64,000 nucleotides of DNA from a virus (IMGVR_UViG_3300037067_017075:3916-67915), one strand, 5' to 3'. Shown: positions 1,988 through 51,196, numbered from the stretch's first letter. The notes: generated by a model from the sequence alone, not told the origin. Numbers and translations are program-made.

Positions 1988-2028
1988 GGTATTCCCTCCC
2001 TAAACCCTGCCCCGTCAACGGGGACGTG

Positions 2029-2460: not shown

Positions 2461-2461
2461 G

Positions 2462-4464: not shown

Positions 4465-4490
4465 ACATCACCTCGTATTGCTATTTACAA

Positions 4491-4545: not shown

Positions 4546-4553
4546 GGGATCGC

Positions 4554-25898: not shown

Positions 25899-26027
25899 AT
25901 GATAAATCCCCTTGTGTTTTCCTGTCAATAACAAAATGCAATTTAAAACAAAAAAAACACATTTAAACACATTTTTCTCTTGACAGGGTATTTTATTGTG
26001 TTAGAATGTATTTAAAGGAAATACATT
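25899..26027. promoter_or_regulatory. Divergent sigma70 promoters with an operator-like inverted repeat
   Basis: Leftward TTGACA-18-TATCAT (25928-25899); rightward TTGACA-16-TAGAAT with extended TG (25980-26007); AATGTATTT-N5-AAATACATT at 26005-26027. Confidence 0.75.
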
Positions 26028-26049
26028 TCAATACATAGGGGGTTTAAAG

Positions 26050-29000
26050 ATGTGCCGAGTGAGACTCACAGTAGACGGGAAAACCAGAGTTTATAACCTG
26101 ACGCCCGCCGCGTTCGGACGGTTCCTGACCAAATGGGCCAACAGCCGGGGGCTGGTAGTCCTGGACATCCTTGACATTTCCGAGGATAAACCGGCATTCT
26201 CTGAGCGGGCCGCGTGATCATGGGGGGTTTCCCCCCTCAATCTCTATCGGGGATAGGGATTGATGGGAGACACACCACAAACAAGGGGGATTTAATCGTG
26301 ACAATCAAGACAACGGAGCAGTATTGGGATTGTGAATGTCGTGAGAACTTCATTCATCCGGCGGCTGTCAATCATTGCCCGCGGTGTGATACATACCGTG
26401 ACGAACAGCCAGACAGCAGAGTTAATGAAGTCTTGGACGTTGGGCTTTCTATTACCGCCGAAAACTGGGACACGCTCATCGACCAGGTCGAGGATGCGGC
26501 GGAGCGGTTCAATGAATAATCGCATTCAATAACAGGGGGATATTGTGAAACGCTATACGATGAAAAATTATGAGATTTTCCGGGATAACGGAAAATGGGT
26601 GGCGGTCAGGTCTGGCCTCGATGGAGTACGTCGTAACATCGCTATGCCGAATTGCCAGACAAAACGGGACGCCATAGAGGACGCGCGGCGTGACAGAGAT
26701 TTTTTAAACGATGTTATTGGGGGACGTTATGAGACCCCATAAACCAAAAACACGCGACACGCGCCGGGTCCCGGCCGAGACACCCACGGAAATAGTGATC
26801 CGGTCGCTGTGGGGGATCGTACGCGAGCCGGGAATGACCGGGGCGGAGCGGGCGGAGTGTCTGACATTTTTTGTGCTGTCAATCGTCCATGAGGGATTTT
26901 TTGAGCGGATCGATTGGCGGGCAGTTGCGGCCGAGGGGCTATAACGGAGGGGGGTATATGTTACGTTCGAAGATTTTGGCAGCACAACACCGGGCACTAG
27001 TACGCCGACAGCGAACCGCGTTAGCGTTATGTGCTGACGATGATGAGCGTCAGGCGGTGCTATCTGTCTGTGGCCCGCTCATCAGCAGGGCCAACAGCGC
27101 CGTTGAATATGCGCGGGCGTGTGAGACGAGAGAAACGCATCCGTGGCATACCGCGCCCGATGGGACACCGTGCCGGTGTACCGCCGAGGACAGGCGTTAT
27201 GGTTGTGGATGTCGGTAACACACGGAGGCCGTGCGGGCCTCCCGGAGCTTTCCGAGATATCGGAAATTTCCGGGAGTTTCACAGGGAAGCTCACGGGGGA
27301 ACAATTCACGACAGGGGGGACTTATGGACGACACGAAAGCGGCCAGAATCTGGCAAGCGGTTTTTTTACAGGCGGTCAAAGACTACCGGGCTGGGGATTT
27401 GCCCCGGCGGTGGTTTTTCGGCCCGGCGGCCCTGGCAATTTCCGGGGTGATCATAGCGGCGGGGCTGGCCGACGATACGGCGAAACGGGCCGGGGAGATC
27501 ATGGGGAGGGCGGCGGCATGAAACGACAATGGCAACCGGCGGCGAGATATCGCATTTCTCTATTCACGCCCCTCATGCTGCACCATTCCTATTGGGCCGA
27601 TACGTTAGCGGAGATATACGACGTGATCCGCTATTTGTCGCCCCGGTGGGGGAAAGTATACGACTACGAACACAGGCATGACGTTTTAGCATGGGGCGGC
27701 CCTGTCCCGACGGCAAATTTGCCGGGCGGGTTTTAGTATATCGGGAGGCTTTACGCTTCCCGTCTATCCCCCTGAGGGGATAGACGAAAGGCGTAAAACA
27801 TAACAGGGGGGATTTATGAGAATCAAAAACTTACCATCGTTTCGGTCGTATGGGGAATACGCGAGCGACAATTACGGCGCTCACGCGCTGCAATTTACGG
27901 ACGGGCGGGAGATTACCTATTATTTCTCATACAAGACGCTTGTGGCCGTCTGCGTGCCGGGGGTTGGCCTCCGTGTCCTCAAGAACTATTGGGGAACCAC
28001 CACCGGCAAGCATCTAAACTGGATAGACGGCGGCCAGAAATCAAACAGATGCACCCAAGAAGAATTTGACCGCTTCTTAATTCAGAACGGCATTGTAGAA
28101 GAAGCGGCAGCGTAAACCCTTGACGGCCGGGAGTGATCCCGGCGGCGGCCGTAACGTGATCCGCATTAAAGAGGGAAGCGGCCAAAAAAGCGGATCGAGA
28201 AAAACAGGGGGAAGCATGAATAAAAGAATCACATGGCCAGAGAAAAATATGTATAGCGATCCAGATCATAATACATATTTTTTGGGTCGCAACGGAACCG
28301 GAAAAGCTGGTGGAGTCGTGATAACCGATTTTAATCATAAATCGGTGGGCCGGGTAAGAATCGATCCACTAACACGGCAAAGCATCACGCGCGGAAAACC
28401 GAGGGAGGGCCGGGCGTGGATCGAATTTCCGGCGGCTTACGCCGGGGCCGTTGCCGACGCGATACGGGAAGCGGCGGGGCTGTTTCCGGTGCGGGAGGGG
28501 ATCAGGTGCGCGAAATGTGGGAGCGATATCTATAACCTCTTAGACGATGACAACAGGATATATACGTACCGCTGCGACTGCGGACACGAGGGCACGGCGG
28601 CATATATTGAGATCATAACGGAAATAACGTAATTATCGGGAGGGGGGAACCGTGGAAAAAATCAGTATTGAAAATCAGGGACATTGTCCAAGGTGTGGCG
28701 GGGACAATATCGAATTTGAGGGCTGGAACGCCGATGGCGAAACCGGCTGGGATGATTGCACGTGTTTGACGTGCGGGGCGTATTTTCAACAGGTCTATGA
28801 TATCCGCTATCTTTATTCAGAGACAACGGGGGACGAATTGCCCGCATATTGCCGACTCGATCCGCCGCCGTTTCCGCATATCATACCGTAGACCGATCCG
28901 GGGGGGGCTTTATGTCCCCCCGTGATCCCCCCGGATGCGGGAGGATCACGGGGGTATATAAAACACTAACAGGGGGCAAATATGAAAAAAGATTGGCGCG

Positions 29001-29152
29001 AAATGATCAAATGGTCGGACGACGAGCTTCTAATGGGCTTGGTGGCCGAGCGAATGAGTGAGCTTAATCCGTACTCACCTTTTCACCGGCGATTAGATAA
29101 AGTTTATGACCGTCTCCAAGAAAAGGTAAAGGCGGAGCGCAAGACGGCGTAA
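26050..29152 (+). CDS. Cluster of ~11 small early genes (26050-26217, 26298-26519, 26545-26742, 26729-26944, 26958-27218, 27324-27521, 27518-27736, 27816-28115, 28216-28632, 28652-28891, 28982-29152)
   Basis: Most are preceded by (A)ACAGGGGG-type RBSs; several carry CxxC motifs; functions unknown. Confidence 0.7.
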
Positions 29153-29280
29153 TCCCCCAGGGGCGGGGGCTCCGGCCCCTGCCCTATCCCCCCCGTATCC
29201 GGGGGGTTGGTATTTTACATAATTTATGAGTATCGGGCGCGGTGGGCGGCTTCATAAATTCAGTATCCGGGAGGCGTATC

Positions 29281-30312
29281 TTGATCGGATTGGCATTACA
29301 AAAACATAGTTGCGATGTATGCGGGCGGGAGCTGGATCATCCGGGCCGCTGCCCGGAGTGCATCGGCTGGGAATACCTGGCCCAGGCGTCGGCCATTGAC
29401 GGGCGCGTGTATCGGGTCCCGGTATCGGAGATAGGTATCGATCCCGCCGTGTATCAATTTAAGCGCGACGTGGACGCCCAGGGCGTATCCGAGGGGTCCC
29501 GGCTCACGGGTTCGTGGAACGAAGCGGCGGCCGGGCTGCTGCTGCTGTATGAAGACCTGTCCGGTATCTTATGGGTGGCAAACGGACATCATCGATTGAG
29601 CCATGCGCGGCGGTGCGGTATCCGGGCCCTGAATGCGCTCATAGTCCGGGAGATCGAGGGCTATTCATCGGAGGACGCCCGGAGGCTGGCCGCCGAGGCG
29701 AACATCCTGGACGGCAAGGGCACGGACCTGGACCATGCCGAGTTTTTCCGGCATTCCGAGGCCGATAAGTCTTTTTACAAAAAGGCCGGGCTGGCCCGGC
29801 GGGGCTGGATCATAGGCCAATGGGCGACGGATGACCTGTATGCGCTTTTTCGGGCCGGCAAGGTATCCGGGGAATGCGCGGAGGCGGTATCGGGGGCGGC
29901 GCCGGGTGACATAGCGATACAGGCGGCGGCTGCCCGGTGGTGCCTGGCCAATCCGAGGGCAAAGGGCGATGAAGCGCGGGCCTATACGGAGGCGCTCAAA
30001 GTCGTGCCGAGGGGCCCGGCGACGGCAGATCTATTCGGCTTTGACGACAGCGCGATCATCGAGGCCGACCGGTACACCCGGATCGTCCGGGCCATCCGTT
30101 CCGAGATATCGGAACGAATCACGGCGGTGCGGAGCGCGGCAAAGCGCCCGGACGTGGCGCGGGCCGGGGGAGTGGAAGTTGCGGACCCGGACGGTATCCT
30201 GGCGCAAGTGCGGGAAGACCAAGCGACGCTGGCCCGGTGGGATAAATGGTATCTGGACCCGGAATTGACCGCTGTGGTCAAGAAACGGGCGAGGGATAAA
30301 GAAGCGGCTTAA
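29281..30312 (+). CDS. ParB/Srx-like domain protein resembling ParB domains of phage polyvalent proteins, with an N-terminal Zn finger
   Basis: IGIDPAVYQFK, W-E-AAG, VANGHHRL (GxxR), AAEANI; TTG start with GGAGG. Confidence 0.75.
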   Translation: MIGLALQKHSCDVCGRELDHPGRCPECIGWEYLAQASAIDGRVYRVPVSEIGIDPAVYQFKRDVDAQGVSEGSRLTGSWNEAAAGLLLLYEDLSGILWVANGHHRLSHARRCGIRALNALIVREIEGYSSEDARRLAAEANILDGKGTDLDHAEFFRHSEADKSFYKKAGLARRGWIIGQWATDDLYALFRAGKVSGECAEAVSGAAPGDIAIQAAAARWCLANPRAKGDEARAYTEALKVVPRGPATADLFGFDDSAIIEADRYTRIVRAIRSEISERITAVRSAAKRPDVARAGGVEVADPDGILAQVREDQATLARWDKWYLDPELTAVVKKRARDKEAA

Positions 30313-30381
30313 ACTTGCAGATCAAATAGAATCCGAAGCATGGTCAAAGTTTATTTCTCATCCTTATTAACATAACGGGGG

Positions 30382-32142
30382 ATGATTATGGCAAAAATAC
30401 TTCGCAAAATAGATGGAGAATGGATTGCTCTATGTCCGAACTCTACAGATCCAAAGATGGGTGACGTATATTTGAGCGATCCCCAGTCTTATGCGCTCTC
30501 TCTCTATTATGTTTATGATGAAGGACCATACAATAAACGCTTCCTGTCTCCGAGACAACGCGAGGAAATACTCAGAGACGTTCCAACATATGTCGATGAA
30601 TGGAGAAGGTCGGGCTGTATTTCCTGGAGAAAAAATCCCGAATGGATTGCGAAGTATCACGGCAATAGATTTTGGTATTTTATTAGAAAGATCAAGGTGT
30701 GGCTTTTTTGGTCATTGCCCAGTCTAAAAAGTTTTCTCAAATAGGAGGGTTATTATGATTGCAACAGCAAATTTACCAGGGAGTACGCATTTTCGGTGGT
30801 TCAAGGGTACTAAAAGACAGTGTTATAGGTTTTTCAACTATCTTAACAGAACAAACGAATACTGGCGGCAGGAATATATGCCTCAAGTAATGACAGACAA
30901 TGCCACGAGAAAACGAGATCGTTACCAGGACGGTACGTTGATCTATGACGTGCCAGAAGGACACTATGAATGCGATGGATTAACCGAAGAGGCAATAATC
31001 AATAGAACTTTTGAGCCTTATCCCCGACAGATATCGAGGGTGTCCTATACTCAAGGACTTTGCCCAATTTGCGACAATGATGTTTTAGATCAGAAAAAGA
31101 CGGAAATCAACGACAATACGATTGCAGTGTATTTTAGATGTTGTGGGTGTAAAGCATATCTAAAAGAGCAATATCGTATCGCATATTATGATGGAACTAT
31201 CGTTGTCGATAAACACGGAAATTCGAAAGAAGAACTACAGGCGGGGGGTATCCGATGAAACGCTGTACTGAATGTCACGTCCCCCTGCCCCGGGACCACC
31301 GGGGAGCGCAGTTGTGCGCCGGGTGCCGGCTGGAGGCCGAGGATGCGGGGATGACCACCCCATGCGACAGGTCGCATGGGGGCCCCGGTGAGGGCAAGAA
31401 AACTAACGCCCAGGAGCCCCGTCTATTTTCCGAGAAACCCCAGCGGGACCGCTCTGTTGAGAAGGCCGAGGCCGAGTGGACGTGGCGGGAGAAGATCAGG
31501 GCAAAGACAAAACCAATTGACGAGTTGCCGCTGTTTCGGCGGCAGAGGGAGATGTTTTAACGGAGGTATCTATGGCTATTTGTCCGATTTACAAGGCGGG
31601 GATGTTGGCTAATCCCGATCCAGAAATTCGCACCTGTGAGGGATTAAATAACATGATGTGCGATCAATCCGGCTGCGCCTGGTGGGATCAGTATGCCGGG
31701 ATGTGCGCGCTGCTGGTCCTGGCGAACAACGTATCGACCGAGAACTTCCTGCTCCGCGAAAAGGCGGCCCGCGAGGTCATGGTAGAAAAAAAGTAGCCTC
31801 CTGATGGGGAGGGGGCCGGACCGGTTCCCCCGCCGGTATCCCCCTCGGTCCCCTCCCCCTCCTTATGGAGAACGGTGACATATGACAAAGGACGACATTA
31901 TTGCCGATTATCTCAGGTCCGATGTCCTGACCCTGACGATCATCCGGGCCCGGCGGGTGGACTTCGACACGCGGGAGGGCCGGGGTATCCGGCTTCGGTT
32001 CGTTGGACAAGCGGTATCCGGGGGCGAGATTGCAGCGCTCAACGCCTCCGGCTGGTGGCCGGTGGGCGAGATCGGCGGGGCCTATACCCATTTAATCCGC
32101 TCCGGCGCCGAGTTTTGGGCGGCGGCATGTATCTGGATTTGA
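30382..32142 (+). CDS. Five hypothetical genes (30382-30744, 30755-31258, 31255-31560, 31572-31796, 31882-32142)
   Basis: Co-oriented ORFs with RBSs; the first two are AT-rich. Confidence 0.6.
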
Positions 32143-32219
32143 TTTTTTTCAAAAAAACGCTGCACACATGACCGGATTAACTGAATATATGATACGATAA
32201 TAATAGAGGGAGAAGATCA

Positions 32220-32795
32220 ATGAATTATTACAAGCTAACGAACAAATCCGAGGTTCACTACGGGCTGCGGCTGGTCGATGGGCTGAACGTTGACCCGTGG
32301 CAGTGGAACCCCTCCGGCCGCTGCCAGGAGGGCGGAATCTACTTTGTCTCCTCGGAAATCCTGGCGTGCCTCTCGTATCCGGAGGGAGGGGCATACTGGA
32401 TCCGCACCGTTACCCTGCCCGAGGGTGAACCGGTGTGGACGGAGGACGGCCCGGTTAAGTACAAGGCCCACCGACTGATCCTCGGTCGGCGACGGCGTAT
32501 CACGCCGGCGGTGCTGAAACGGCTCGTTCGTGAGGGTGCGCTGCTTCACCCAAACGCGGCCACCTGGGCGGCGGAAAACGGTTACCTCGACTGCCTGCGG
32601 TATCTCAACGAGATCGGAGCGCCGATCAATGAGTGGGCGGCCACCCGGGCGGCGATAAACGGTCACATCGACTGCCTGCGATATCTCAACGAGATCAAGG
32701 CGCCAATCGATTCGGAGGCGGCCGGGTGGGCGGCGGCAATGGGTCAGGTCGAGGCCGCGCGAATAATCAAAACCTGGCTGGAGGGAAAACGATGA
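32220..32795 (+). CDS. Ankyrin-repeat protein
   Basis: AATWAAENGYLDCLRYL / AATRAAINGHIDCLRYL / AAGWAAAMGQVE repeats. Confidence 0.85.
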   Translation: MNYYKLTNKSEVHYGLRLVDGLNVDPWQWNPSGRCQEGGIYFVSSEILACLSYPEGGAYWIRTVTLPEGEPVWTEDGPVKYKAHRLILGRRRRITPAVLKRLVREGALLHPNAATWAAENGYLDCLRYLNEIGAPINEWAATRAAINGHIDCLRYLNEIKAPIDSEAAGWAAAMGQVEAARIIKTWLEGKR

Positions 32796-34260
32796 GCCGA
32801 CGCAGACAATATCTTGTATCCGAGATGATTCTGGCGTTTAAACGGTACGTCAAACACGAGATAACCAGGGAGGAATTCGACGAGGCGCGGGAGAAGATCC
32901 ACATCGCCATCAACGGCGCGCCCGTTGGTGAACTTAATTTCGACGGGGTATCCGGGGAGCCCGGCAAGTCCGGAGTCCCCACCCAGGCCGCCCTCGACTG
33001 CCTGGCCGAATGCTACCGGGCAGAGGGCCGGTCGTTTCTGGTGCTTTCCATGCCGGAAGGAAACTACGACGCTCGGGTATCGGCGCGGTTCGGCAGGACC
33101 GATGACGAGGATGCCGTGGCGATGATCGCGGCGTTTCTGGAGGGCAAGCCCGCCATCAAGGAGCAGTTGCTGGTCCACTACGGCCGGGAGGCGATGGACC
33201 TGCACGTAGAGGCCGAGTTTTTCCGGCAGCGCCGGGAGCGGGAGCTGGACCGGGAGATCGAGGGGCTGGAAGAAATACGGACAGTCCCGTACACATGGGT
33301 GGCCGATGAAACAACTCCGGCATTTCCAACAATAAGAAGGTGGCGGCTGATCTAATGAGAAAACACATTAAGGAGTAAACGATATGTGGTGGATTTTAAT
33401 TTCCGGTGTTGTTCTTTGCGTGACGATCGCCATCCTGGTTCGTTACGCTGAGGAAAGCTGGCTATGGGTTGCGATCGCGGTGTTAGTGTGGGCTTTTTTC
33501 GCCGTCATTTCTTTTGGTTTTTTCTTCGGCACGACCTCCGAGTATGGAGAGATGCACGGCATCCTGTATTCGTTGCCGGCCTACAAAAAGACCGTTGACG
33601 ATACTGGGGACATAACCTATGCGATCTCAGAAAACGAAATGATCAATGCGGCCGAAATCGGGATCGGCAAGGCCAAGAGCGAGCGGATGGCTGAGATGGT
33701 CACCAGGATAGACCGCTACAACCATCTTTATGGTGTCAACCGAGAATTTTATGATACATGGTGGGGCCGCCTTTGGATGCCGGCATGGCCGGAGGATTTG
33801 AAGCCCTTGATAATAACGAAATAAGGAGAGGTAAGACATGAAAAAGATGTTTCAGTGGCTGGCGTCGCTGGTTATGGTGGTGCTTTGTAAGGCCGTGCAG
33901 ATCATCGGTAAACTCGCCGACAGAAAATACGTGGCGGGCTGCGAGTGGGGAGATCACACGAATATTTATATATATGGCAACAACTTCTTCCGCCTCCGCC
34001 TTGCCTCCGGTGCATTGCATCTGCGGGCCAGTCGTTTCGGAATGGTCGTGTTTCTTTCCGACGAATTCAACGCATGGGGTAAAACCAGGAGCGAGTTCTT
34101 ATGTGAAAACCTGGAACGAGTGTTTGATAAGGAATCGGTGGGATTCAAAAACACATCGAAAGAGATATTGCGGGTCGAGCAAGAGTTAATCTTCCGGTTA
34201 GCGACCCTCGTCGCCAACAAGAAACGGCCGCACAAAAAGCAGGAGTCCGGCGGTGCATAA
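32792..34260 (+). CDS. Three hypothetical genes (32792-33355; 33384-33824 membrane protein; 33838-34260)
   Basis: RBSs and coupled starts; two TM segments in the middle gene. Confidence 0.6.
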
Positions 34261-35101
34261 ACACGTCCCCGAGTTCATCGACCACCTCCGGCAGCGGAAG
34301 ATGCCCCGGCCGCTGAGGGCAAGCACCATCAAGGTCTACGGCACGGTCCTCCTTCGGTGGCGGGACGTCTACCCCGGCGACATCAACACGGCCACCGAGG
34401 ACGAGATCGAGGGCTTCCTCAACCGTATCAGGGGCAACGGCTCCTGGCGGTACGTTGCGGCGGTGGCCCTCAAAAACTATTACCGCTGGCTGGGCAGGCC
34501 GCTGGGTGATCGGTTCAAGATCTCGCTGCCCGCCGCCCGGGAGTACCCGGCGGTTACCGACGTCGAGTTCGAGCTGATCAAGCGCCACGCCTCGCCCCGT
34601 ATCAGGAACCTCATCAACTTCCTGGCGCTCACCGGCGTCCGTATCTCCGAGGCCCTCGGGGCACAGGCCGGCGACTTTGAGCTCGACCGCATCGAAGACG
34701 GCCGGCGCCGGCCGGCGATGAAGGTCCGGGGAAAGGGCGGAAAGATCAGGCGCATTCCACTGGTCCACCGCGGGCTGGTGGAGTGGCTTCGAAGGCAGGT
34801 GGCGGGGCCGTTCGAGGGAATGAGTTACGATCAGGCGTGGGGCGGGATCCACGCGGCGGCCGAGCGCGCCGGGGTCCAGCGGCTGATCTCCGAACCGGGG
34901 GAATATCCGCCCCGGTACTACGTGAGCCCGCACGCCTTTAGGCGGTACGCCGCGACCAGGCTGCTGGACCGGGGCGTCGATATCGATGTGGTCCAGACGG
35001 TCCTGCGGCACTCGAACATCAACACGACGCTCCGCTATGCCAAGACCCGGGAGAACCGGGTGTGGGCGCAGATGGGACAGGGAGAGGCGTATGTACAGTA
35101 G
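34253..35101 (+). CDS. Tyrosine recombinase (XerC/D-like integrase)
   Basis: TGVRISE (R), GKGGKIR (K), HAFRR (HxxR), LRHS (H), TLRY (Y). Confidence 0.92.
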   Translation: MHKHVPEFIDHLRQRKMPRPLRASTIKVYGTVLLRWRDVYPGDINTATEDEIEGFLNRIRGNGSWRYVAAVALKNYYRWLGRPLGDRFKISLPAAREYPAVTDVEFELIKRHASPRIRNLINFLALTGVRISEALGAQAGDFELDRIEDGRRRPAMKVRGKGGKIRRIPLVHRGLVEWLRRQVAGPFEGMSYDQAWGGIHAAAERAGVQRLISEPGEYPPRYYVSPHAFRRYAATRLLDRGVDIDVVQTVLRHSNINTTLRYAKTRENRVWAQMGQGEAYVQ

Positions 35102-35711
35102 CACCAAAACCGTCCTCATCAAGCACGGTGGCCCGGTATCCGATAAGCTCAGGTACGTCGGGCAATGGGACGGGGTCGATATCTACACGACCGCACCCAG
35201 GACGACAATATGGATGTGGCCGTTCGGTATCTTCTTGCTGATTTGTGAGCTTCTGCGGTGGATACCGCTGCTCCTGTCTTACGAGGCCCAGCGTTACTAC
35301 GGCATCTGGCTGTGGTCGAAGGTGCTCAAGGGTGTCGGCTGGCTTTTAAACGTACCGGAGGACAAAACATGATAAAAACTCGGGAACCCGACCGGTCTCC
35401 GCTTAAAGCGGAGGTTAGCAGGATCGTCAAAGGATTCCTTGCCGTCAATACGTTCACCGTGAAGGTATCGACGGGCATCAAAACCCGCACCGTCGGCTTC
35501 TTCCGGAAGCTCAACTGGGAGCTTCTTGTCTGGTGGATATGGTTTTCCTTCATGATTCTCTGCCTTTTATGGGTTATCGGAACCTTCATCTTGTTCTTGG
35601 TAACGCCGAAAGAACCGGCATCATTTCTGGCGATGGGAATTAATATCATGCTACTGGTGTTTGTCGTCTATAACTTGAGCTGGTTGTTGCCGGCCTATAG
35701 GAATGTCCGCA

Positions 35712-35987
35712 ATGACAAGACGTAAACCACCCCAGATCAACTTCGTCCCCGATACCGACGCCACTCCCGGGCAGAACTTCGCGGCCATTCTTAAAAAACT
35801 CGGCATCCGGGACGAGAAGGCGGTCAAGGAGCTGTCGCGCAAAACGCGGCTGGACCCCTCGGCTATCGCCGATATCGCCAACGACCAGGAGACCATCACC
35901 CCGTCGATAGCCGACCTGCTGGAACGCGGGACCGGCATCAAGCGCGAGTGGTGGCTGATGATGGTGGAGAGGTGTACAAAAAAATGA
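35712..35987 (+). CDS. XRE/HigA-like HTH protein
   Basis: TPGQ..., ELSRKTRLDPSAIADIAN...ITPSIA..L...TG...WWL. Confidence 0.75.
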   Translation: MTRRKPPQINFVPDTDATPGQNFAAILKKLGIRDEKAVKELSRKTRLDPSAIADIANDQETITPSIADLLERGTGIKREWWLMMVERCTKK

Positions 35988-36812
35988 CTCGTATTCCTCA
36001 GTTCTTCTGCTGGTGCGGACGCGAGATGCGGCTGGAGCGATCCGGTATCCGGCTACGGGTAGAGTCCTCCATGATAGGGCCGAGGGCCGTCGTCGAGGCC
36101 GAGCAGTGGCGGTGTAAGGCATGTGACATGCGGGTCCGCCGGATCGCACCCGGAACCACGCCGATCACCCCGATGGACCCGGGGTTTGAAAAGGCGGTGT
36201 GGGATGAGGAAGTGAGGACGATATGAAGTTTAATTTTTTATCATGCGCGTCACCAAAAACAAAAGTGAGATTACTAAAGGTCGTCCCCTGCTTTCCCAGT
36301 GGATCCATAGCTGGGTATATAGGTGAAGAACCAAAGAGTTATGAGCCAACCCATGACCACATCGAGTTCCCGATTAGCATCTATCACGCATCTGTCTGTG
36401 AGACGTTTTTTCATGGCAGGATAGCGCATATATGGGGTGGCGGAATATCTTGTTGGGTGGATCCAACAACGAAGGAATTGATATAGATGGAACCCATAAC
36501 GATTCAAACCAGTATAAAACATCAGTATCAGATCAAGGCCAGAGTCCAGAATATTACTGATCATCTTTTGAGATTTACCATTCCAGAAGAAAGCCTGACC
36601 GAGAAATATTACCCAAGGCGTAAACAGATCGTTCTCCTGTCGATGGACCAAGGAATATGGCGCCTAATAATCATCGATGTAAAGCGCCGTATGCTCGAAA
36701 ACGATGATGCCTATGTAGTCGATCTTCTCGCCGAGACCGAGGGGCTCAAAAAGGTGCAACCGAGGAAACACCGGGCGGCATTAATGCCGCCCCTACATCT
36801 GTAACCCGTTTT

Positions 36813-37106: not shown

Positions 37107-37550
37107 ATGCGCGGATACTTCGAGATCGGCATCTATCATACTAAAACAGAGATCAACGTCGGTACTCTCTGGCGCTCTGCCTATCAACTCGGAGCAGCGG
37201 GCATCTTCACAATCGGTAGACGCTACAAGAGGCAGGCGGGGGATACCGTCAAGGCATGGCGCCATATTCCGTTGCGACATTACGTCGATTTTGAGGACTT
37301 CAATACACATCGGCCCCAGGACGCGGTTCTCATTGGGGTTGAAATGGGCGGTGATCTTCTCCATACCTGTGCTCACCCGGATCGGGCTATCTATCTGATG
37401 GGCGCTGAGGATTCAGGTCTGCCACAGCAAATTTTAGATCGATGCAACCGAGTCATAGCGGTAGAAACTTCCGGCGTGGAATCATACAACGTCGCGGTTG
37501 CCGGAAGTATTGTGATGTATCATCGGTTTATAACGAGGACTTGTTTATGA
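37107..37550 (+). CDS. SpoU/TrmH-family RNA 2'-O-methyltransferase (SPOUT)
   Basis: NVGTLWRSA..LG, LMGAEDSGL, SYNVAVAGSIVMY. Confidence 0.92.
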   Translation: MRGYFEIGIYHTKTEINVGTLWRSAYQLGAAGIFTIGRRYKRQAGDTVKAWRHIPLRHYVDFEDFNTHRPQDAVLIGVEMGGDLLHTCAHPDRAIYLMGAEDSGLPQQILDRCNRVIAVETSGVESYNVAVAGSIVMYHRFITRTCL

Positions 37551-39225: not shown

Positions 39226-39853
39226 GTAAAATTAAGATGTTTTTGCATAAGCTATTCCGTTCTTCAAAAACGGCCTGTGCCGAAGACGGACATCTTGCTC
39301 CGGTGTATATAGTCCAGAAATGCTACCGTAAACCGGACAGAGAAAAGGATATTTTCCATAGCCGGTACGTTATGATGAAGGTCAAGCGATTTCGGCCACA
39401 ATGCCCCCGATGCGGGAAATGGCTTGGAAACTGGAAGGAATTTTACGATACCGGGATAACGTCGTTTTCAGCCGGTGATTCGGTATGGAATGCTACTCGG
39501 TACGGCGGATTTTATCTCATCGATAGCTGGCGGACCTACAATGACCCCAGCAAACCCCCCGCAAACGAAAAATATGAGGGTTGATCCGATGAGCGCTATC
39601 TCACGCTTCCTCAAGGAACACGGCCTCAAACACCTGACACCTTTCTGGTACGTCCGCTACCGCTACGGCATCATCCTGCGGCGTTTCGGGCGCGTCCGGA
39701 CAGTTAATGGCGCATATGGCACAATCACCTGCGCCCGGGGCGGGTACGTGTACGTCCGGCTGGACGGCGAAAAGCGGTCAGGCCGGTATCACCCGAAGGA
39801 GCTGGTGTACTACCCAGCCCGGCCCGAGCCGGTACACCACAAGGAAGAGGACA

Positions 39854-40600
39854 ATGAATCGAACGAAGATAGAGTGGGTTCGTAACCCCGACGGGACCGC
39901 CGGCTACACCTGGAATCCAGTTACCGGCTGCCGTCATAACTGCTCCTACTGCTACGCCCGCCGGATGTGCGTGCGGTTTGCCGGGAAGTGGGGCCTCGAC
40001 CCGGCCGACCCATTCAGGCCGACGTTTCACCCGGAACGGTTGAATGAAGTAGATCATCTCAAGGGGAAGAAACAAATATTTGTTGGATCGATGTGCGATC
40101 TTTTCGGTGATTGGGTTCCGAAAGAATGGATACAGGACGTCATCGATAAAGCGAGATTCCAAGACGAGCATTATGCACACTACGTTGTCGATAGAGACGG
40201 TCGGGTAAAACAATCCTGTCCCAGGACCTTCATCTTCCTAACCAAGAACCCCCGGCGATATGCCGAGTTCGACTTCCCGCCGAACTGCTGGCTCGGGGTG
40301 ACGGTGACGGGGCAGATCGATTACCAGAAATACCTCGGACTCAGAAGGCAGGATTCTAAAAATATCAAGTTCATGTCCTACGAACCGATCCTCGGGTCAT
40401 TTGATTTCTTTGACTTCGCCTTTCCCGACTGGCTCATCCTCGGCGCCATGACTGGGCCGGGGGCAAAGAAGTACGCACCCGACCCCCGGTGGATAGCCGA
40501 TGCCGTGGCGCAATGCCGGGCGCGGGGGATCCCGGTGTTTATGAAGAACTCCATCCGTCCCTACTGGACGGGGGAGATGATACGGGGGTGGCCGAGATGA
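39854..40600 (+). CDS. DUF5131 (Gp37Gp68, radical-SAM-like) protein
   Basis: TKIEW, TWNPVTGC...CSYCYA, IFVGSMCDLF, LTKNP, SYEPIL, IPVFMK. Confidence 0.9.
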   Translation: MNRTKIEWVRNPDGTAGYTWNPVTGCRHNCSYCYARRMCVRFAGKWGLDPADPFRPTFHPERLNEVDHLKGKKQIFVGSMCDLFGDWVPKEWIQDVIDKARFQDEHYAHYVVDRDGRVKQSCPRTFIFLTKNPRRYAEFDFPPNCWLGVTVTGQIDYQKYLGLRRQDSKNIKFMSYEPILGSFDFFDFAFPDWLILGAMTGPGAKKYAPDPRWIADAVAQCRARGIPVFMKNSIRPYWTGEMIRGWPR

Positions 40601-42022: not shown

Positions 42023-44177
42023 ATGGACTTAGATAAAATATATAGCCTATTCGACGATGCCGTAAAAAATAATAACGACAAAATAGTGCTGTCTATTCCC
42101 CTGGCGGTGGAGTTTAGAGACGTGCTCAGAAATGCACTGGTGGAGCGTAACACCACAAATTCAACAAAACACCACCTACTCGATGAGGCAATATCCCGCA
42201 TTACCGAACTCGAACGGGAGCGGGATGAAGCGGTGAAACAAGCGAATGAAAATTATCACGCCTACGAGATCATGCGCGACGGTTGCAAGATGCACGAAGA
42301 ACTGGCCGACTCGTGGAAGGAGAAGGCAGAGAAGGCGGAGGGTGCGCTTGTCGAGAGTTTCCGGGACGGCTACGACGCGGGTTATAAATACGCGAAAAGC
42401 GCGGCTGGCAGTAGAGGAGGCCCATATGTTGAACGATAAAGACCTACGGGCGGTAGCGGAGTTCGCGGGGATAGACCTCGACACGATCAAACTCCCCCAG
42501 TACGTTAATGATACGCGGTCAGATATGAAACTAAAATTACAGACCGACTCCGGCATGGCCGCGATACTGAGGACACTGTTGGCGAAGCCCTCCGTGATGC
42601 CTACGGGGAGTCTGGACAGGATACGAGAATTGATAACCTTGCCCGATGGTGTAGAGTGGGCTCCCGGTCCTGAATACGTGCGTAAACAGATACAGTCAAT
42701 TATTGACGAGGGATAACATGGACATAGATAAGAGAGTAGCAGAGTGGCTTGGCTTTATAGTGACGAAGGACGCGTTAGAGCATAACCAATACGAATGGTT
42801 TTGTGACAACAAAGCTTACGGGATGTGGAAAGAGTTTATCGATTGGCTCTTTTCCGACGAAGGCTCTATGGCCATACTGAGGGCATTCCACAAGGCGGGG
42901 TACAGAGTTGTTCACGAGACAATACTTACCTCTACATTTGTCCACACGGAACGCTACGTGGGTAATGCGCATTATGAACAAGGGGTAAAGGCACGTGCCG
43001 GTTCTTTAAACGCTGCCATCCGTGAAGCGGCGAGGAGATACGTAAAGGAGAAGCCATGATAGAAGAAATAAGAAAGAGGAATGAGGAGCACAAGACCCTA
43101 CACGACAAGCTTGTGTCCGCAATGGGTATAAACTACGATTACCCACAACTCGTCATCGATATCGACGTCCTCCTCGCTATCATCGATAGGGTGCGGGAGG
43201 AGTTGCCCGTAGAGAAGATGTGCGACTTCTGCGGGGTATCAACGATCGGGGGGAATCCGCACGACATCCTCGACGACATCAGGGCCATCCTCAACGAGGA
43301 GGACACAAAATGACACCGGAAGAACTGATAAAGGTTTTTCGGAACAATTCTAAGGAAAGTAGCTCCGAATACTCAACATTGTTATGGAATGATCGAGCGG
43401 AATGTATCACGGCTCTCCTTAATCGCGCCACCCGTGCCGAGAAAGCGTTAGGGGAGATACGAACGGTATCACACATAGACCCATACACCATTTCCAACTT
43501 CAAGGACACGGTGTATGGGGTAAACGGCATCCTTGACGACTATTACGGAGGCCAATGATGACCGAAGATGAATTAAGGGCCGTTGAAGAAAGGCGTCAAG
43601 ATGCACTATTTCTATGCTCTGAATATGGTGTATCGCAATTACTCAAAACCGACATCCCCGCCCTCCTCGCAGAGGTGCGGAGGTTGCGGGAGATATGTGA
43701 GCGATGGGAGAACCTATCCCCTGTATGGAGGAAAGAATGAACACCATCTTTACCAAAGAGTATCTACCGGGGACGGTTTGACCCGATGAAGATGGTCTAC
43801 GTCCATTTCGGAAACTTTGGGCCTCCTATACTCGACGAACGGATACTCAGGCCGATTGCAGAGGTAACGAAGGAATTCAGCGAACGGATTAAACCGGTAT
43901 TCGAGTCTCTGGGAGACGGCAATGTAACGGTTAGTGTCGTTGTGACAGAAGTCGAAAAAACATGACCGAACACATGGCCTACATAGCCGTTAAATCCTGC
44001 GGGTGCGTCGTGGGGGCCGTTGTGGATATTCCGGAATGTCGGAAAGAGACGGCCAAGGACGTCGCCGAATGGATACGTAACGGCCTGACGATAGAACGAG
44101 TCCCATCGGCGGAAGTCAAGACGCTCTTAAAGGCGTGCCACTGTGATGAAAAACAGATTTCCATGGGGTTGAAATGA
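42023..44177 (+). CDS. Run of small hypothetical (ead/nin-like) genes
   Basis: Coupled short ORFs with a recurrent DIPALLAEVRRLR / DIDVLLAIIDRVR motif. Confidence 0.55.
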
Positions 44178-47651: not shown

Positions 47652-47897
47652 ATGACAAAGAAGAAAACACCAACCGACATTAATCAGCTTGCCAAATTCA
47701 TTACTGATCAGACGACAGAAGAGAAGCCCGTCGAAGAAGCATCGCCAGTAAGAGAGAAGAATGCAGCTGCCGTGGCCCTTGGAAGATTAGGTGGATTGAA
47801 GGGCGGTAAGGCCAGAGCAGAAAAATTAACCGCAAAACGTAGAAAAGAAATCGCGCAAAACGCCGCCATAAAAAGATGGCATAAGGATAATGATTAA
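47652..47897 (+). CDS. Small basic protein commonly accompanying these IS1-like transposases
   Basis: D.NQLAK.I.D, KNAAAVALGRLGGLKGGKARAEKLT..RR.EIA..AA..RW. Confidence 0.8.
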   Translation: MTKKKTPTDINQLAKFITDQTTEEKPVEEASPVREKNAAAVALGRLGGLKGGKARAEKLTAKRRKEIAQNAAIKRWHKDND

Positions 47898-48997
47898 GTT
47901 TCTTTTTCTGTTATTGTAATTACCTTATTATCACCTTCTGGTTTATTATTTCCAGAAATAGTACTTTTAATAGCGTGTGCTTCGATTGTATCTCGAATCA
48001 ATTGAACTGGAAGATTTGTATGTGTCGCTATCTTTCTATAGTCTATTGGTGTACCATATTTTAATTCCGCAACTTGTCCGACAAGACGGGGTTTTTCGAT
48101 TGGTATTTCTATCGGTTCTTTTGTTCTCCAATCATACTTATTTAATTGATAAATCAGATACTTGTATTGTCTTTGCGTTATTACCTCTAACTCTCGCGCC
48201 CTCATCATAATCGCCTGGATAGATACCCTCCAACGTTTTTTCATATCAATAATATTATTCATATTTACAGGACGATCTAATTCTTTGAGCATCGCTTCTT
48301 TAGGCAGGAGAAATTCACTGGCGAAATTATTAGCCTCCTTCTCTACCTTCTTAATATCTCCATTCATAGCTTGATGTAATACTAAATGACCAAGTTCATA
48401 CGCCATACTAAAACGAAGTCTATCTCCCGGGGCAAAACCATTAGTAAGAATTATTATCGGACGTTTTGGCTCATCTCCAACCCATACGGAAAACGCATCA
48501 ATTTTATTTATGTCAGTAGGTAACGCAATTACTAAAACACCATTCTTTTCAATGGTACTTACTAAATTATTAATAGGAGTATCTGGCGATAAGCCAAATG
48601 CCGATCTTGTTTGGATTGCCGCATCTTCGGGTATATCATCAATTCGTGGTAGACGATTTTGAATCTTACTACGAGTATTTCTTTCAAGATGGCTGACAAC
48701 TTCATAGAAGATACGGCTATATTGATATACTCTACTACGCTCCTTTTTAGTAATTGCGGCTCTCGCACGATACAAAAGGGACCCAAGCGGGAATTCTACC
48801 GATGTCGGTTGTTTAAAAAATGCTGGTGGAAACCCAACTTGAAAGGTTATCTTTTGTAGGATTTCATCACCGGGTGTAATTCTTCCCAGTTCGATTTGCA
48901 CAATCTCTGATTGATGAACACCAATCTTCTTTGCAAGTTCGATTTGCGTTAGTCCCCTAAATTCTCGGGCCTGTCTTACCCTATCACCATTAATCAT
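47894..48997 (-). CDS. XRE HTH plus ImmA/IrrE (M78) peptidase domain; HExxH reads YELGH
   Basis: N-terminal RVRQAREFRGLTQ.ELA; DRLRFSMAYELGHLVLH; EKEANNFASEFLLP. Confidence 0.9.
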   Translation of the reverse strand: MINGDRVRQAREFRGLTQIELAKKIGVHQSEIVQIELGRITPGDEILQKITFQVGFPPAFFKQPTSVEFPLGSLLYRARAAITKKERSRVYQYSRIFYEVVSHLERNTRSKIQNRLPRIDDIPEDAAIQTRSAFGLSPDTPINNLVSTIEKNGVLVIALPTDINKIDAFSVWVGDEPKRPIIILTNGFAPGDRLRFSMAYELGHLVLHQAMNGDIKKVEKEANNFASEFLLPKEAMLKELDRPVNMNNIIDMKKRWRVSIQAIMMRARELEVITQRQYKYLIYQLNKYDWRTKEPIEIPIEKPRLVGQVAELKYGTPIDYRKIATHTNLPVQLIRDTIEAHAIKSTISGNNKPEGDNKVITITEKET

Positions 48998-49140
48998 TTT
49001 TTGTTATCCACTTTAACTTCTATTTCCGCATCCAGAAAGATTTCTAAATCCTCTGATTCAAAAGTAGGTACCGTTTCCGTTACAGATTTAATGTTGCTTA
49101 ATTTGCTTTGCGGATTTCTAACATTAAATTCTCCTTGCAA
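48994..49140 (-). pseudogene. 3' remnant of the gene upstream of the XRE-ImmA gene
   Basis: 49-codon frame ending in an ATGA overlap with XRE-ImmA, preceded by an in-frame TAG at 49141-49143. Confidence 0.4.
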
Positions 49141-49283
49141 CTATTGTCCTTCTATGCTAATAATATTAGCAGAATAGGACAATGGCGTCAAGAAAAAAAT
49201 GCAATCAAAAGAAAATACTACGAAAATGGGCAAAAGGAAAGAAAAAGCTTGACATGCTTGAGCGGTCATGTATAATAGATAGT

Positions 49284-50114
49284 ATGAATACTTTAAAACC
49301 CGAAAAGAGAAAACAGGTAGTCGCGGCATTGGTGGAGGGTAACTCCATCCGCGCCACTTGCCGCATGACGGGCGTAGCAAAGAACACGGTGGTCAAGCTA
49401 CTTGTTGATCTCGGGAAAGTCTGCACGGAATACCAGGACAAGGTATTCGTTGATCTCCCCTGCAAGCATATCCAGTGTGACGAGATTTGGGCCTTCTGCT
49501 ACGCGAAAGAGAAAAACGTTCCCGAAGATAAGAAAGGTCATTTTGGGTACGGCGATGTCTGGACGTTCACCGCCATTTGTGCGGATTCTAAGCTCATCCC
49601 CACTTGGCACATTGGCAGGCGTGATGCAGAGAACGCGACACTATTTATGAAGGACCTCGCCGCAAGAATGGCGAATAGAGTACAGCTTACTACAGATGGT
49701 CACGGGATGTATTTGGTAGCCGTTGAAGATGCTTTCGGGTCAGAAGTGGATTTTAGCCAACTCGTCAAGATATATGGTACGCCTCCCGAAGCCGAAAAGA
49801 GATATAGCCCAGCTCAATGTATTGGAGCCGAAAAGCATACGATCAACGGAAATCCTGATCGGGCGAAAGTTTCAACGAGTTATGTTGAGAGACAGAATCT
49901 AACAATGCGTATGAACATGAGACGCTTTACGAGACTGACAAACGCCTTTTCTAAGAAGGTTGAAAACCTTTGGTGCGCGGTAAGCCTTCATTTTATGTAC
50001 TACAATTTCTGCCGTATCCATCAGACCTTGAAAATGACCCCGGCAATGAAGGCGGGTGTTACTGACCATCTTTGGGAAATCGAGGATATTTTAAGTCTTT
50101 TGAATTCAAACTGA
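49284..50114 (+). CDS. IS1-family DDE transposase
   Basis: HTH LVEGNSIRATCRMTGV; IQCDEIW; LTTDG; TSYVERQNLTMRM..RRFTRLTNAFSKK. Confidence 0.92.
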   Translation: MNTLKPEKRKQVVAALVEGNSIRATCRMTGVAKNTVVKLLVDLGKVCTEYQDKVFVDLPCKHIQCDEIWAFCYAKEKNVPEDKKGHFGYGDVWTFTAICADSKLIPTWHIGRRDAENATLFMKDLAARMANRVQLTTDGHGMYLVAVEDAFGSEVDFSQLVKIYGTPPEAEKRYSPAQCIGAEKHTINGNPDRAKVSTSYVERQNLTMRMNMRRFTRLTNAFSKKVENLWCAVSLHFMYYNFCRIHQTLKMTPAMKAGVTDHLWEIEDILSLLNSN

Positions 50115-50593
50115 CCCACTACCGAGATGTACCCGCGCATTAACATGACGTTTCACCAGCTTGACCGCAAGTTGTGGGGTCAGCAAGAGGGAGAACCTGC
50201 CGTCGAGGTTATCGGGACTCCCGGAGGCGGCGGCATGATCCGGCGCGGCCACACGAGCATCGTGTTGTCACCGACGGAGATGATGAACCTCGGTTATTCG
50301 CTCAGTAGAATCGGGGAGGCGAGGAAGGAGTTGATCAATGACTGAGCTGGCTGCTATCAACCGCGCGGGGTGGGAGATAAATGCCTGCTGTGGTTACTGC
50401 GGTACTCCGTTCGACCTGATCCACCCCGAGCCCCGCACGGAGCGGCCGACGCCGCGCTACAATCCTATTTTAACTCTCATAGGGATGTAATTGAGGGATG
50501 GTTTACCATTATCACACCAGTTAATAAACGTCTTGCCGTCCTTAAAGAAGAGATTGAAACGTTGAAAAGCAAGCAATGGCAGGAGATCCACGC

Positions 50594-51196
50594 ATGACAG
50601 CAGGTCGTACATTAAAAACACTAAGCCAAGAATGGGGTACTCCCGAAAAGTACGTTAATGCTGTGCGTGAGTTCTTCGGGGGGAACATTGACCTTGACCC
50701 CTGTTCTAATGAATACTCCATTGTACATGCGAAAAATGAATATCAACTTCCAAAGCATGACGGGCTCAGGGAGAGTTGGAATTTTCCTACTATCTACATA
50801 AATCCACCATATGGGATTGATAAAGAACGAGGTACATCAATTAAACAATGGCTTAAAAGGTGTGAGGCGGCAAACAGAGAATACAAATCAGAAGTCCTTG
50901 CGCTTGTACCCGTAGCAACTAATACGGGACACTGGAAAAATTATGTTTTTGGTAAAGCTACAGGTGTTTGTTTCCTTTATGACACCCGACTAAAGTTTCT
51001 TGTAAATGGACAAAATGGTGGGAAAGGTGCCCCAATGTCATGTGCTATGATCTATTGGGGAAAGGACTTCGACAAATTCATGACAGTTTTTAGTAAGTTC
51101 GGTGCTGTTGTTGATCTTCGCCCATTGAAGGGAAAAGAGTTTGGTGAACGATCTGAAAACGATCAATTAGCTTTAATACCTACTACCGAAAAATAA
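50594..51196 (+). CDS. Phage Dam-like DNA N6-adenine methyltransferase
   Basis: EWGTP, IDLDPCS, DGL..SW, INPPYG, RLKF. Confidence 0.88.
   Translation: MTAGRTLKTLSQEWGTPEKYVNAVREFFGGNIDLDPCSNEYSIVHAKNEYQLPKHDGLRESWNFPTIYINPPYGIDKERGTSIKQWLKRCEAANREYKSEVLALVPVATNTGHWKNYVFGKATGVCFLYDTRLKFLVNGQNGGKGAPMSCAMIYWGKDFDKFMTVFSKFGAVVDLRPLKGKEFGERSENDQLALIPTTEK

Follow-up and report, generated by a model that had tools for sequence, protein, structure and literature searches.

We describe here an array of the word GTATC in the genome of an uncultivated phage (IMGVR_UViG_3300037067_017075, 67,915 bp), of which bases 3916-67915, a stretch of 64,000 nucleotides, are referred to as the window; positions are counted from its first letter. 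The array begins just upstream of a ParB-like gene, which by sequence comparison is the solo form of a module otherwise located inside giant polyvalent phage proteins, runs through this gene and continues into the genes that follow. We found that the array is real, local, strand-polarised and selected at the nucleotide level, and comparison of orthologous loci shows it to be inherited with the gene family over about 50% protein divergence, with individual sites turning over. We rate the chances as even that GTATC, in its fuller form GTATC(C/G)GG, makes up a cognate operator and loading-site array of the ParB-fold protein, its putative binder.

A local, strand-polarised array selected at the nucleotide level

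The plus strand carries 15 GTATC words in 29195-30253, a single one at 30654 and 14 in 31176-33081, 30 in total, vs. two on the minus strand in 29190-33100 (29916 and 32191); the binomial P of this split is 2.5e-7. An earlier sequence-only reading had listed the 15 positions and counted the 14, all of which are present, and had called the reverse complement rare, which the count bears out; the site at 30654 is additional. Its expectation of one word per 1.0-1.4 kb was about right, as the two strands of the whole window together contain 137 copies (dinucleotide shuffles: 101.8 ± 9.5, none of 100 reaching 137), i.e., a background of roughly one per 0.93-1.26 kb per strand. Counted by kilobase, 13 copies fall in 29001-30000 and 3, 6 and 7 in the following three, while every kilobase outside 29-33 kb holds 0-5; 26000-29189 is devoid of plus-strand copies. 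In 29150-30320, GTATC is the top-ranked word among 4-, 5- and 6-mers with at least four copies, its 15 occurrences comparing with expectations of 0.69 (base composition), 5.35 (the region's own order-2 Markov model) and 1.7 (rate over the remainder of 26-52 kb). It ranks first again in 30321-33100, with 15 copies vs. 2.25, 4.34 and 4.31 under the same three expectations.

The flanks of the word are weakly constrained, with G at -1 in 16 of the 30 sites, at +6 in 18 and at +7 in 17. The sequence-only reading described the sites as often extended to GGTATCCGG, which is generous, as the exact 9-mer is present at 5/30 sites; GTATC(C/G)GG is found at 11 of the 30. On the plus strand of the whole 67.9-kb genome this fuller form has 12 copies, all in 29195-36045, and on the minus strand six, which are scattered. 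Spacing within the array is irregular (35, 33, 13, 133, 13, 13, 16, 34, 79, 54 bp, etc.); Tandem Repeats Finder reported no array at 29.1-30.3 kb, and a general repeat search at the locus returned merely short, weak families.

The locality of the fuller form bears on an explanation raised in the sequence-only reading as Chi/KOPS-like signals. Polar Chi-like nuclease-attenuation signals, or decoy or orientation-biased restriction-modification sites, would agree with a short, asymmetric and strand-biased word, which is what the 5-bp Chi of B. subtilis and Type III sites are; moreover, the phage encodes a Dam-family methyltransferase (PF05869), and among the neighbors of the array are anti-defence-like proteins, namely one with a weak Lar-like match (E = 0.004, below the Pfam cut-off) and an ankyrin-repeat protein. 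However, such signals are expected genome-wide, whereas 12 of 12 plus-strand GTATC(C/G)GG words are confined to 7 kb of the 67.9 kb, and in four lineages the words are arranged as tandem pairs where genes of a single family begin. We regard this explanation as highly improbable.

In agreement with the sequence-only reading, the sites are distributed over intergenic DNA and all three reading frames. The ParB-like gene more likely starts at TTG 29281, behind GGGAGG, than at GTG 29242; four GTATC sites are therefore non-coding and 11 lie in the gene, four of them as GTA-TCN, four as GGT-ATC and three as NNG-TAT-CNN. Under a codon-preserving null, which the same reading had proposed as a check, the enrichment stayed: the gene contains 11 GTATC vs. 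2.84 ± 1.36 under synonymous-codon shuffle (none of 5000 shuffles reaching 11), and codon permutation gives an expectation of 1.21 ± 1.07. All four Val-Ser pairs of the gene are written as GTA-TCN, GTA making up 5 of its 21 Val codons, and all four Gly-Ile pairs as GGT-ATC, GGT making up 6 of its 29 Gly codons; suitable x-Tyr-x contexts are written as NNG-TAT-CNN in three of four cases. When every place where synonymous codons could spell the word is counted as an opportunity, its use is distributed as follows:

ParB-like gene: GTATC used at 11 of 15 opportunities (Fisher P 3.7e-8)
Seven downstream genes (30382-33355): 13 of 26 (Fisher P 1.5e-6)
The four genes after these: 4 of 19
Seven early genes upstream of the ParB-like gene: 0 of 20
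38 other window genes (background): 22 of 236

The reverse word, in turn, takes up one of seven opportunities in the ParB-like gene and none of 20 in the seven downstream genes. The codon-preserving nulls and the opportunity counts together uphold the proposal that selection acts on nucleic acid and not on protein; a compositional or codon artefact is rejected on the word ranking, the codon shuffles and the opportunity counts.

A weaker second GTATC pattern extends over 42510-43760, its words pointing away from ~43.1 kb (minus-strand 42510, 42563, 42620, 42689 and 43037, then plus-strand 43236, 43404, 43466, 43630 and 43760). These sites are without the CGG flank, and the gene 42246-42716 uses the reverse word at four of five opportunities; the pattern may be due to chance.

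Layout of the array in the window and in orthologous loci

The elements of the locus, all on the plus strand, are the following:

29189-29206, plus strand: terminator-like hairpin from a terminator scan (7 G-C pairs, then TTGGTATTTT), with GTATC 29195 in its loop; left edge of the GTATC-rich segment
29195-29280, plus strand: upstream array of four co-oriented, non-coding sites (29195, 29230, 29263, 29276)
29281-30312, plus strand: gene of the solo ParB-fold protein, 343 amino acids
29409, 29422, 29435, 29451, 29485, 29564, 29618, 29863, 29887, 30194, 30249, plus strand: the 11 in-gene sites, in three frames
29409-29455, plus strand: densest sub-array, four sites at 13, 13 and 16 bp, in three frames across the conserved peptide VYRVPVSEIGIDPAVYQ
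30382-33355, plus strand: seven co-oriented downstream genes of unknown function, including that of an ankyrin-repeat protein at 32220-32795 (Pfam match)
30654, 31176, 31248, 31566, 31731, 31836, 31985, 32014, 32129, 32375, 32497, 32600, 32816, 32948, 33077, plus strand: the 15 downstream sites, in genes and spacers
34253-35101, plus strand: tyrosine recombinase gene, 282 amino acids (PF00589, 3.4e-19), with GTATC at 34425, 34599 and 34641

The four sites of the upstream array compare with 0.14 expected in 128 nt. Sites 29263 and 29276, 13 bp apart, overlap the GGGAGG ribosome-binding site and the TTG start, and 17 nt separate 29195 and 29230 from the downstream -10-like hexamers CATAAT and CATAAA, respectively. 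Further on, sites are found just 5' of start codons at 31248 and 31566 (6-7 nt before ATG) and at 31836 (46 nt before ATG). Arm-type integrase sites are unlikely, since the catalytic domain of the 282-residue recombinase occupies residues 113-267 and leaves no room for an arm-binding domain.

The enriched segment starts exactly at the terminator-like hairpin and could therefore be one transcription unit, which invites an explanation at the RNA level, with GUAUC in the sense operon transcript bound or cut by an RNA-binding protein or endoribonuclease; T4 RegB, for instance, cuts GGAG in early mRNAs. Such a motif would account for co-orientation with transcription over ~3.9 kb (30 vs. 2), for the missing reverse word in the downstream genes (0/20) and for the position of 29276, 31248 and 31566 between ribosome-binding site and start codon. 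Yet, the 11-13 bp tandem pairs, AT-rich spacers and -10-like hexamers look like DNA operators. We recognised no RNase or RNA-binding protein in the cassette, no Rfam family at E ≤ 1 in 28500-33500 and no consistent stem-loop around the sites, the mean flanking stem being 2.0 bp vs. 1.5-1.7 in controls; on these values presentation of the motif in hairpin loops was rejected. Stems of at least 4 bp occur at 6 of the 30 sites and at 4.3% of random positions. Altogether, we hold an RNA motif to be unlikely.

Solo relatives of the ParB-like protein share 48-79% identity with it, the closest (P0153-P0157) 66-79%. DNA was compared for five loci of four lineages: L013 (67%), L014 and L015, which count as one (51%), L016 (47%) and L031 (50%, partial gene). 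Their proteins are 47-67% identical to that of the window and 53-78% to each other, and GTATC is common to all these loci. We found three plus-strand copies in the 250 nt 5' of the gene in L014, five in L016 and five in L031, where 0.15-0.22 are expected, and none on the other strand. The upstream layout of the window aligns with the arrays of L013, L014, L016 and L031, and the conserved order starts with one site, which is followed by ~30 nt of AT-rich spacer (aaatttctcaagtttt-like), the tandem pair GTATCsGGsCCGTATCCGG at 11 bp and a further AT-rich spacer. Two loci possess a second tandem pair beside the ribosome-binding site; the tandem direct pairs upstream of solo genes are spaced 11-13 bp. 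The L013 upstream array is weaker, its tandem pair being degenerate (GTATT). Within the genes, L014 has six GTATC vs. 1.68 expected (P = 0.0008), L016 four vs. 1.57 (P = 0.048) and the partial L031 gene two vs. 0.43 (P = 0.051). The tie between array and ParB-like gene, seen by the sequence-only reading in the window, thus recurs in four orthologous solo lineages with the same motif upstream, and also in the gene, that of L013 aside.

A codon-level alignment indicates how the sites have changed. Columns 52, 61, 117, 210 and 287 each have a site in two to three of the five loci; the VSE site of the 29409-29455 sub-array is common to L016 and L031, and the YQ site to L014. Other sites are lineage-specific and made by amino-acid replacement, e.g., GIL in the window where GRL or GRV is found elsewhere. 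Such turnover bears the signature that selection for site number would produce.

The tyrosine recombinase gene is the conserved neighbor of the ParB-like gene and lies downstream of it, its product being 42-43% identical in L013, L014 and L015. A tblastn comparison of all window open reading frames (ORFs) of at least 40 amino acids with the orthologous loci detected nothing else that was consistent besides these two genes. In L015, a second intergenic GTATC array (5848, 5871, 5909) precedes the tyrosine recombinase gene. In L013, six copies of the 10-mer GTATCCGGGG occur at 800-6110, within 6.6 kb and on one (the gene) strand, where ~0.006 are expected; three of the six are just 5' of genes, including the ParB-like and recombinase genes. 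Past the L013 recombinase gene, the plain 5-mer is encountered six times on the opposite strand (4805-5490), without the flank.

In the upstream arrays of the window and of orthologous loci, GTATC(C/G) is often positioned 16-18 nt ahead of a -10-like hexamer (29195/CATAAT and 29230/CATAAA in the window; L016 217, 250 and 262/AAAAAT; L031 574/CAAAAT), and promoter prediction gave no canonical sigma-70 promoter from the terminator-like hairpin to the start codon; for these reasons the upstream sites may overlap -35 positions. L013 830 is a GTATT variant followed by CAAAAT. In all these cases the geometry is that of a site overlapping -35. This arrangement would also suit operators or promoter elements of a different factor, be it a phage activator or repressor, a sigma-like protein or a host regulator, with the ParB-like gene just a regulated member; lambda CII, for example, recognises promoter direct repeats with a spacing of one helical turn, and certain of these promoters are intragenic. 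The missing sigma-70 promoter, the failure of the motif to co-vary with the ParB-like protein and the sites just 5' of other genes (L013 2488 and 3730; L015 5848-5909; window 31248, 31566 and 31836) all fit such a factor. However, the ParB-like and tyrosine recombinase genes alone are common to the loci, and family scans recognised no sigma factor, Xis-type or other regulator beside the array. The -10-like hexamers may merely reflect AT-rich spacers; in-gene sites are without them, and a promoter role cannot explain 11 sites in one gene. A different factor seems to us somewhat unlikely.

The exhaustive search for relatives yielded 3,140 matches at E ≤ 1e-3, and most of the best 150 represent the module (query residues 43-337) in proteins of 1,000-4,800 amino acids. 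Among five of these larger proteins scanned against Pfam, three contain LPD38 (one also RelA/SpoT), one RadC, and one had no match. We determined that 18 loci with the module in ORFs of 684-2,938 codons have 0-1 upstream GTATC, 15 of them being without a site in the matched part. The homologous modules of L008-L011 have no GTATC in the gene, while L027, L028 and L030 use 3/6, 3/8 and 2/8 opportunities. On the zero counts in L008-L011 and in the 15 of 18 polyvalent loci, we rejected the idea that the motif is forced by the protein sequence. On homologous genes, the same test as proposed earlier therefore separates the solo orthologues, which are enriched (the L013 gene is not), from polyvalent versions, which lack upstream arrays. 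We also aligned P1 DdrB (L061:24542-27529, minus strand) with two alignments of relatives by hhalign, which gave probabilities of 0.2% and 0.4% with this single-sequence target; membership of the 'DdrB-like' family is not shown by this result, and a remote link is possible.

Among cultured phages, blastn with 28800-33200 returned no match, and tblastn eight distant ones at <60% identity, six with at least 80% query coverage and four with a DNA methylase annotation; among 72,556 plasmids, tblastn detected no relative. A profile search of IMG/VR with the solo-orthologue alignment found two polyvalent-type loci and no solo gene, and a scan of genome contigs found three loci, of which L035 and L036 carry the module in ORFs of 2,163 and 702 codons, with no solo gene added. 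The exact four-site pattern matched one unrelated giant virus in IMG/VR. The layout of site, spacer and tandem pair is present in 23 IMG/VR stretches of about nine sequence families, vs. ~4 expected by a rough estimate, and none of the 23 encodes a ParB-like or recombinase relative at E ≤ 1e-3; we take them for common iteron arrays in which the word occurs incidentally, and not for evidence of a shared binder. Intergenic arrays of at least six GTATCGGAA direct repeats with AT-rich spacers and a classic iteron look were observed in L038-L048 and L054 (IMG/VR, 36-41% GC). Other IMG/VR families have arrays of GTATCGGT, GGTATCC or GTATCGGTTGT and encode no ParB-like relative.

These unrelated viral contigs, with their classic-looking GTATCGG-type iteron arrays, lend some support to an iteron-type replication origin or another polar replication signal, of the kind known from phage origins inside genes. 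In the orthologues, too, direct repeats are interleaved with AT-rich stretches. Furthermore, none of the 47 window proteins scanned against Pfam and/or PHROGs was recognised as a replication initiator, helicase or polymerase, so that an unrecognised origin and initiator must exist somewhere. At this locus, however, the 11-13 bp units come only in pairs and not as at least three phased iterons of 17-22 bp, the in-gene spacing is irregular, and the adjoining gene specifies a ParB fold and not a Rep fold. A close relative, described below, appears without 29138-31769, which an essential origin should not allow. We consider an origin quite unlikely.

The ParB-fold protein as candidate binder

The protein comprises, in order, an N-terminal CxxC...CxxC (zinc-ribbon-like), a ParB/Srx N-terminal domain, a helical domain and long C-terminal helices. 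G102, H104 and R105 are invariant in 19 sequences, and G102-H103-H104-R105 in 11 solo orthologues; we take this G-H-H-R to be the GxxR-type active-site motif of the ParB/Srx superfamily. For this superfamily, PMC5512222 gives a motif with a conserved arginine. The zinc ribbon as reading head is weakened as a candidate by L016, which is without the first CxxC yet has five upstream sites.

The AlphaFold2 model, built from a 19-row alignment, has a predicted local distance difference test score (pLDDT) of 90.1, and its top Foldseek matches are ParB with CTP analogues, ParB-parS, Noc and KorB (E 2.6e-5 to 8e-4). VIA-align superposed it on Noc (7nfu_A: Z 9.9, root-mean-square deviation (rmsd) 4.0 over 194 residues), KorB (8qa9_A: Z 10.1, rmsd 6.0 over 192 residues), ParB-parS (6t1f_B: Z 9.5, rmsd 4.3 over 179 residues), ParB (7bm8_A: Z 10.8, rmsd 2.4 over 94 residues) and PadC (6ryk_A: Z 9.6, rmsd 2.6 over 94); sulfiredoxins score Z 7-8. 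The predicted structure thus contains the N-terminal alpha+beta ParB/sulfiredoxin fold. The ParB, Noc and KorB alignments, whose targets are C-terminally truncated, cover model residues ~32-249, i.e., the N-terminal and DNA-binding domains in a shared arrangement; the superposition of the modelled helical domain on the ParB/Noc/KorB DNA-binding domain speaks for this arrangement and not for DNA binding. At the level of sequence, no Pfam family matched the protein at E ≤ 0.01, while in PHROGs it aligned with part of the very long profile of a 'portal' family (6.9e-11) and, weakly, with PHROG 1033 'ParB-like partition protein' (E = 0.0022). The label 'ParB-like' of the sequence-only reading stands, therefore, for the fold seen by Foldseek and VIA-align and falls for Pfam ParB_N, and we call the protein a solo ParB-fold protein related to polyvalent-protein modules, nothing more specific.

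A parS-like centromere of a ParABS system, the first role offered by the sequence-only reading, is not supported. PF13614 (AAA_31), the sole model searched for a ParA-type ATPase, gave nothing at E ≤ 0.01 across the 67,915 bp of the record, having matched in 14 of 14 control genomes, and the words are asymmetric direct repeats of 5-8 bp and not palindromic parS.

In the reading that we favor, the ParB-fold protein would bind the promoter-proximal sites between the terminator-like hairpin and the start codon and so control its own expression; in relatives these sites are the tandem pairs, arranged head-to-tail with a spacing of roughly one helical turn. The many co-oriented sites that follow within the gene's first third, and the sparser ones over the next 3 kb, would serve as extra nucleation or loading sites, from which a higher-order complex could cover the early-gene segment for silencing, insulation or protection, and not for ParA-driven partition. 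KorB, P1 ParB and many centromere-binding proteins control their own expression, autoregulation through sites in the own promoter is common in the ParB family, and the first parS of B. subtilis lies inside spo0J. For the phage protein we infer all of this: the binder, the action of the sites as DNA, the dependence on nucleotide and the biological outcome.

Several findings weigh against the protein as binder. The same motif is kept across orthologues of ~50% identity with no co-variation of protein and site, which a host or other phage factor would fit equally well. Sites hundreds of base pairs apart all point one way, which bidirectional clamp diffusion from palindromes leaves unexplained, and such polarity would be more natural for a process of the tracking type or at the RNA level. 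The L013 gene shows no excess of sites (2 vs. 1.19, P = 0.34), and the three small genes of L015 that separate the ParB-like gene from the next array are free of sites, i.e., the downstream spread is not conserved. As for the protein, PF02195 (ParB_N) gave no match at E ≤ 1 over the whole genome, comparison with PDB sequences was likewise negative, and the putative nucleoside triphosphate (NTP)-binding boxes differ from the canonical GERR and ENLQR. The synonymous-shuffle null is itself imperfect: unrelated words reach z 5-11 in long homologous ORFs (e.g., CCTGG in L008), and for this reason the within-genome comparison of genes outweighs the z-score. Finally, a close relative appears to lack the gene at this place. 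In a Logan contig of run X3 (landfill metagenome, depth ~5), 29137 is followed directly by 31770, so that 2,632 bp with the ParB-like gene are missing, and 31770-32979 is retained with its GTATC sites at ~97% identity. This variant carries little weight, as a single contig of depth 5 supports it and the divergence is recent. Our confidence is held down by the lack of co-variation, by polarity over kilobases and by the missing downstream spread in L015. What probability the readings discussed here leave over belongs to something we have not thought of.

If the X3 join is real, the ParB-like gene with its array and the four genes that follow would be a cassette that close relatives may or may not carry, in keeping with a mobile, self-contained module. 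In X3, none of the 33 differences listed for 32298-32902 falls in a GTATC, which is uninformative, as ~1.3 would be expected to do so by chance. A second X3 contig (depth 3.3) has 33262-34241 replaced by 18 letters. The two contigs suggest cassette-like indels among close relatives of the phage.

A wider version of the favored reading can be put forward tentatively. The protein would represent a ParB-fold branch, outside the Pfam ParB model, that acts as a sequence-specific phage regulator of a non-palindromic 5-8-bp word and whose loading zone is co-oriented within its own and its neighbors' coding sequence, spelled out through codon choice and in places through amino-acid replacement; with the recombinase it would make up a ParA-independent module that coats and directionally controls, silences or protects early genes. 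Were this true, polarity as strict as this would call for a directional step (e.g., loading in one orientation or transcription coupling) that is not known for ParB-family clamps.

Among the closest known systems is KorB-OB of IncP RK2. Its operator OB is a 13-bp palindrome, whereas the word described here is an asymmetric direct repeat of 5-8 bp, and KorB operates with the ParA partner IncC and the co-repressor KorA, whereas no ParA was found here. We detected no sequence similarity between the two. The resemblance lies in the N-terminal and helical DNA-binding domains, which superpose in the model (8qa9_A, Z 10.1), and in many sites over several kilobases of a mobile element, some at promoters, the own one included, and others distant or intragenic. 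Long-range silencing would be a plausible outcome (PMC11790492, PMC13768133).

The ParB-parS systems (Spo0J, P1 ParB, F SopB-sopC) are similar in fold, the model matching ParB bound to CTP analogues or parS. They also share sites at and inside the gene of the candidate binder, as with B. subtilis parS in spo0J, and P1 parS consists of short asymmetric box A and box B words. In contrast to them, the phage gene is without a detected ParA and without a Pfam ParB_N match, 30 short co-oriented sites are spread over 3.9 kb where those systems have a compact centromere or a small number of 16-bp palindromes, sometimes just one, and the locus is phage-borne, in an early block, with no relatives among the 72,556 plasmids.

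Polyvalent ParB domains are reported to occur without ParA association by Iyer et al. 2017 (PMC5512222), where they are predicted to act as NTP sensors or as sequence-nonspecific DNases under NTP control, with late genes encoding them and virions packaging them. The recurrence of the ~300-residue module in large multidomain proteins and the missing ParA association agree with this description; unlike those domains, the present protein is solo, encoded in an early block and tied to a specific site array. Direct-repeat regulators (omega of pSM19035, ParR-parC of R1, Apl/Cox/Xis) likewise have short asymmetric words that are repeated head-to-tail in promoters at intervals of about one helical turn and also act as centromere or recombination-control sites (PMC7498355 for Apl sites, 10.1101/2022.05.29.493902 for omega heptads). 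The conserved tyrosine recombinase neighbor is a further likeness. Those binders, however, are small ribbon-helix-helix or winged-helix proteins with compact intergenic arrays, whereas in the phage a ParB-fold protein is the sole conserved candidate, and most sites are coding and spread over kilobases.

That ParB-family proteins have cognate sites at and in their own genes is known already. New here are a fold branch missed by Pfam ParB, a non-palindromic co-oriented word, heavy overprinting of coding sequence, the absence of ParA and the recombinase neighbor. A 2025 survey based on the Pfam ParB model stresses how common orphan ParB-fold proteins are on phages and other mobile elements (PMC12704722). 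The family of the window protein would escape a Pfam-ParB-based survey of this kind. To our knowledge, the DNA target is known for almost no orphan ParB-fold protein; in this case a candidate target can be read from the sequence, with a defined motif, a 0.5-kb core fragment and four natural array variants. It bears on whether divergent ParB folds are site-loaded clamps, which nucleotide they use, and what role a ParA-less ParB plays in a phage early region. A regulatory array overprinted on coding sequence, with 11 of 15 contexts used, also matters for interpreting or recoding synonymous sites in phage genes. In the literature searched we found no description of GTATC arrays or of a DNA target for the module; the supplements of PMC12704722 and PMC5512222 may hold the family.

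Genome context and early-gene block

The record, whose ends repeat 127 bp, stems from an uncultivated phage, and near-identical DNA is present in one groundwater run, the possible source, and one landfill run. The terminal repeat does not reveal which DNA goes in first at infection, and so gives no hint either way on the injection or anti-restriction decoys proposed in the sequence-only reading. The minus strand at 1-22 kb and 52-64 kb carries long ORFs with high third-position G+C, which we take to be late and structural genes. Small plus-strand genes form a block from ~25.9-26.0 kb, where a strong divergent promoter pair is predicted, to ~51.5 kb; the GTATC array lies ~3 kb into this early block.

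Just 5' of the cassette, 28652-28891 encodes the small protein with the weak match to Lar restriction alleviation (E = 0.004, under the curated Pfam cut-off). Runs of C and G at 28895-28962 and 29150-29206 give rise to several long hairpins around a small ORF (28982-29152), e.g., one with 25-nt arms (28909-28933/28938-28962) that are 88% complementary. Further into the early block are genes for a SpoU-type methyltransferase (37107-37550), a DUF5131 (radical-SAM-like) protein (39707-40600) and the phage Dam-family N6-adenine methyltransferase (50576-51196). GTATC includes an adenine, and there is no evidence tying the Dam-family enzyme to the word.

A low-GC island at 47894-50114 (0.41 vs. 0.50-0.60 in its surroundings) comprises a minus-strand regulator with helix-turn-helix and IrrE/M78-peptidase domains (PHROG 2439, 9e-83) and a plus-strand gene with weak transposase-type matches (IS1 DDE, rve). 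It is probably an inserted element.

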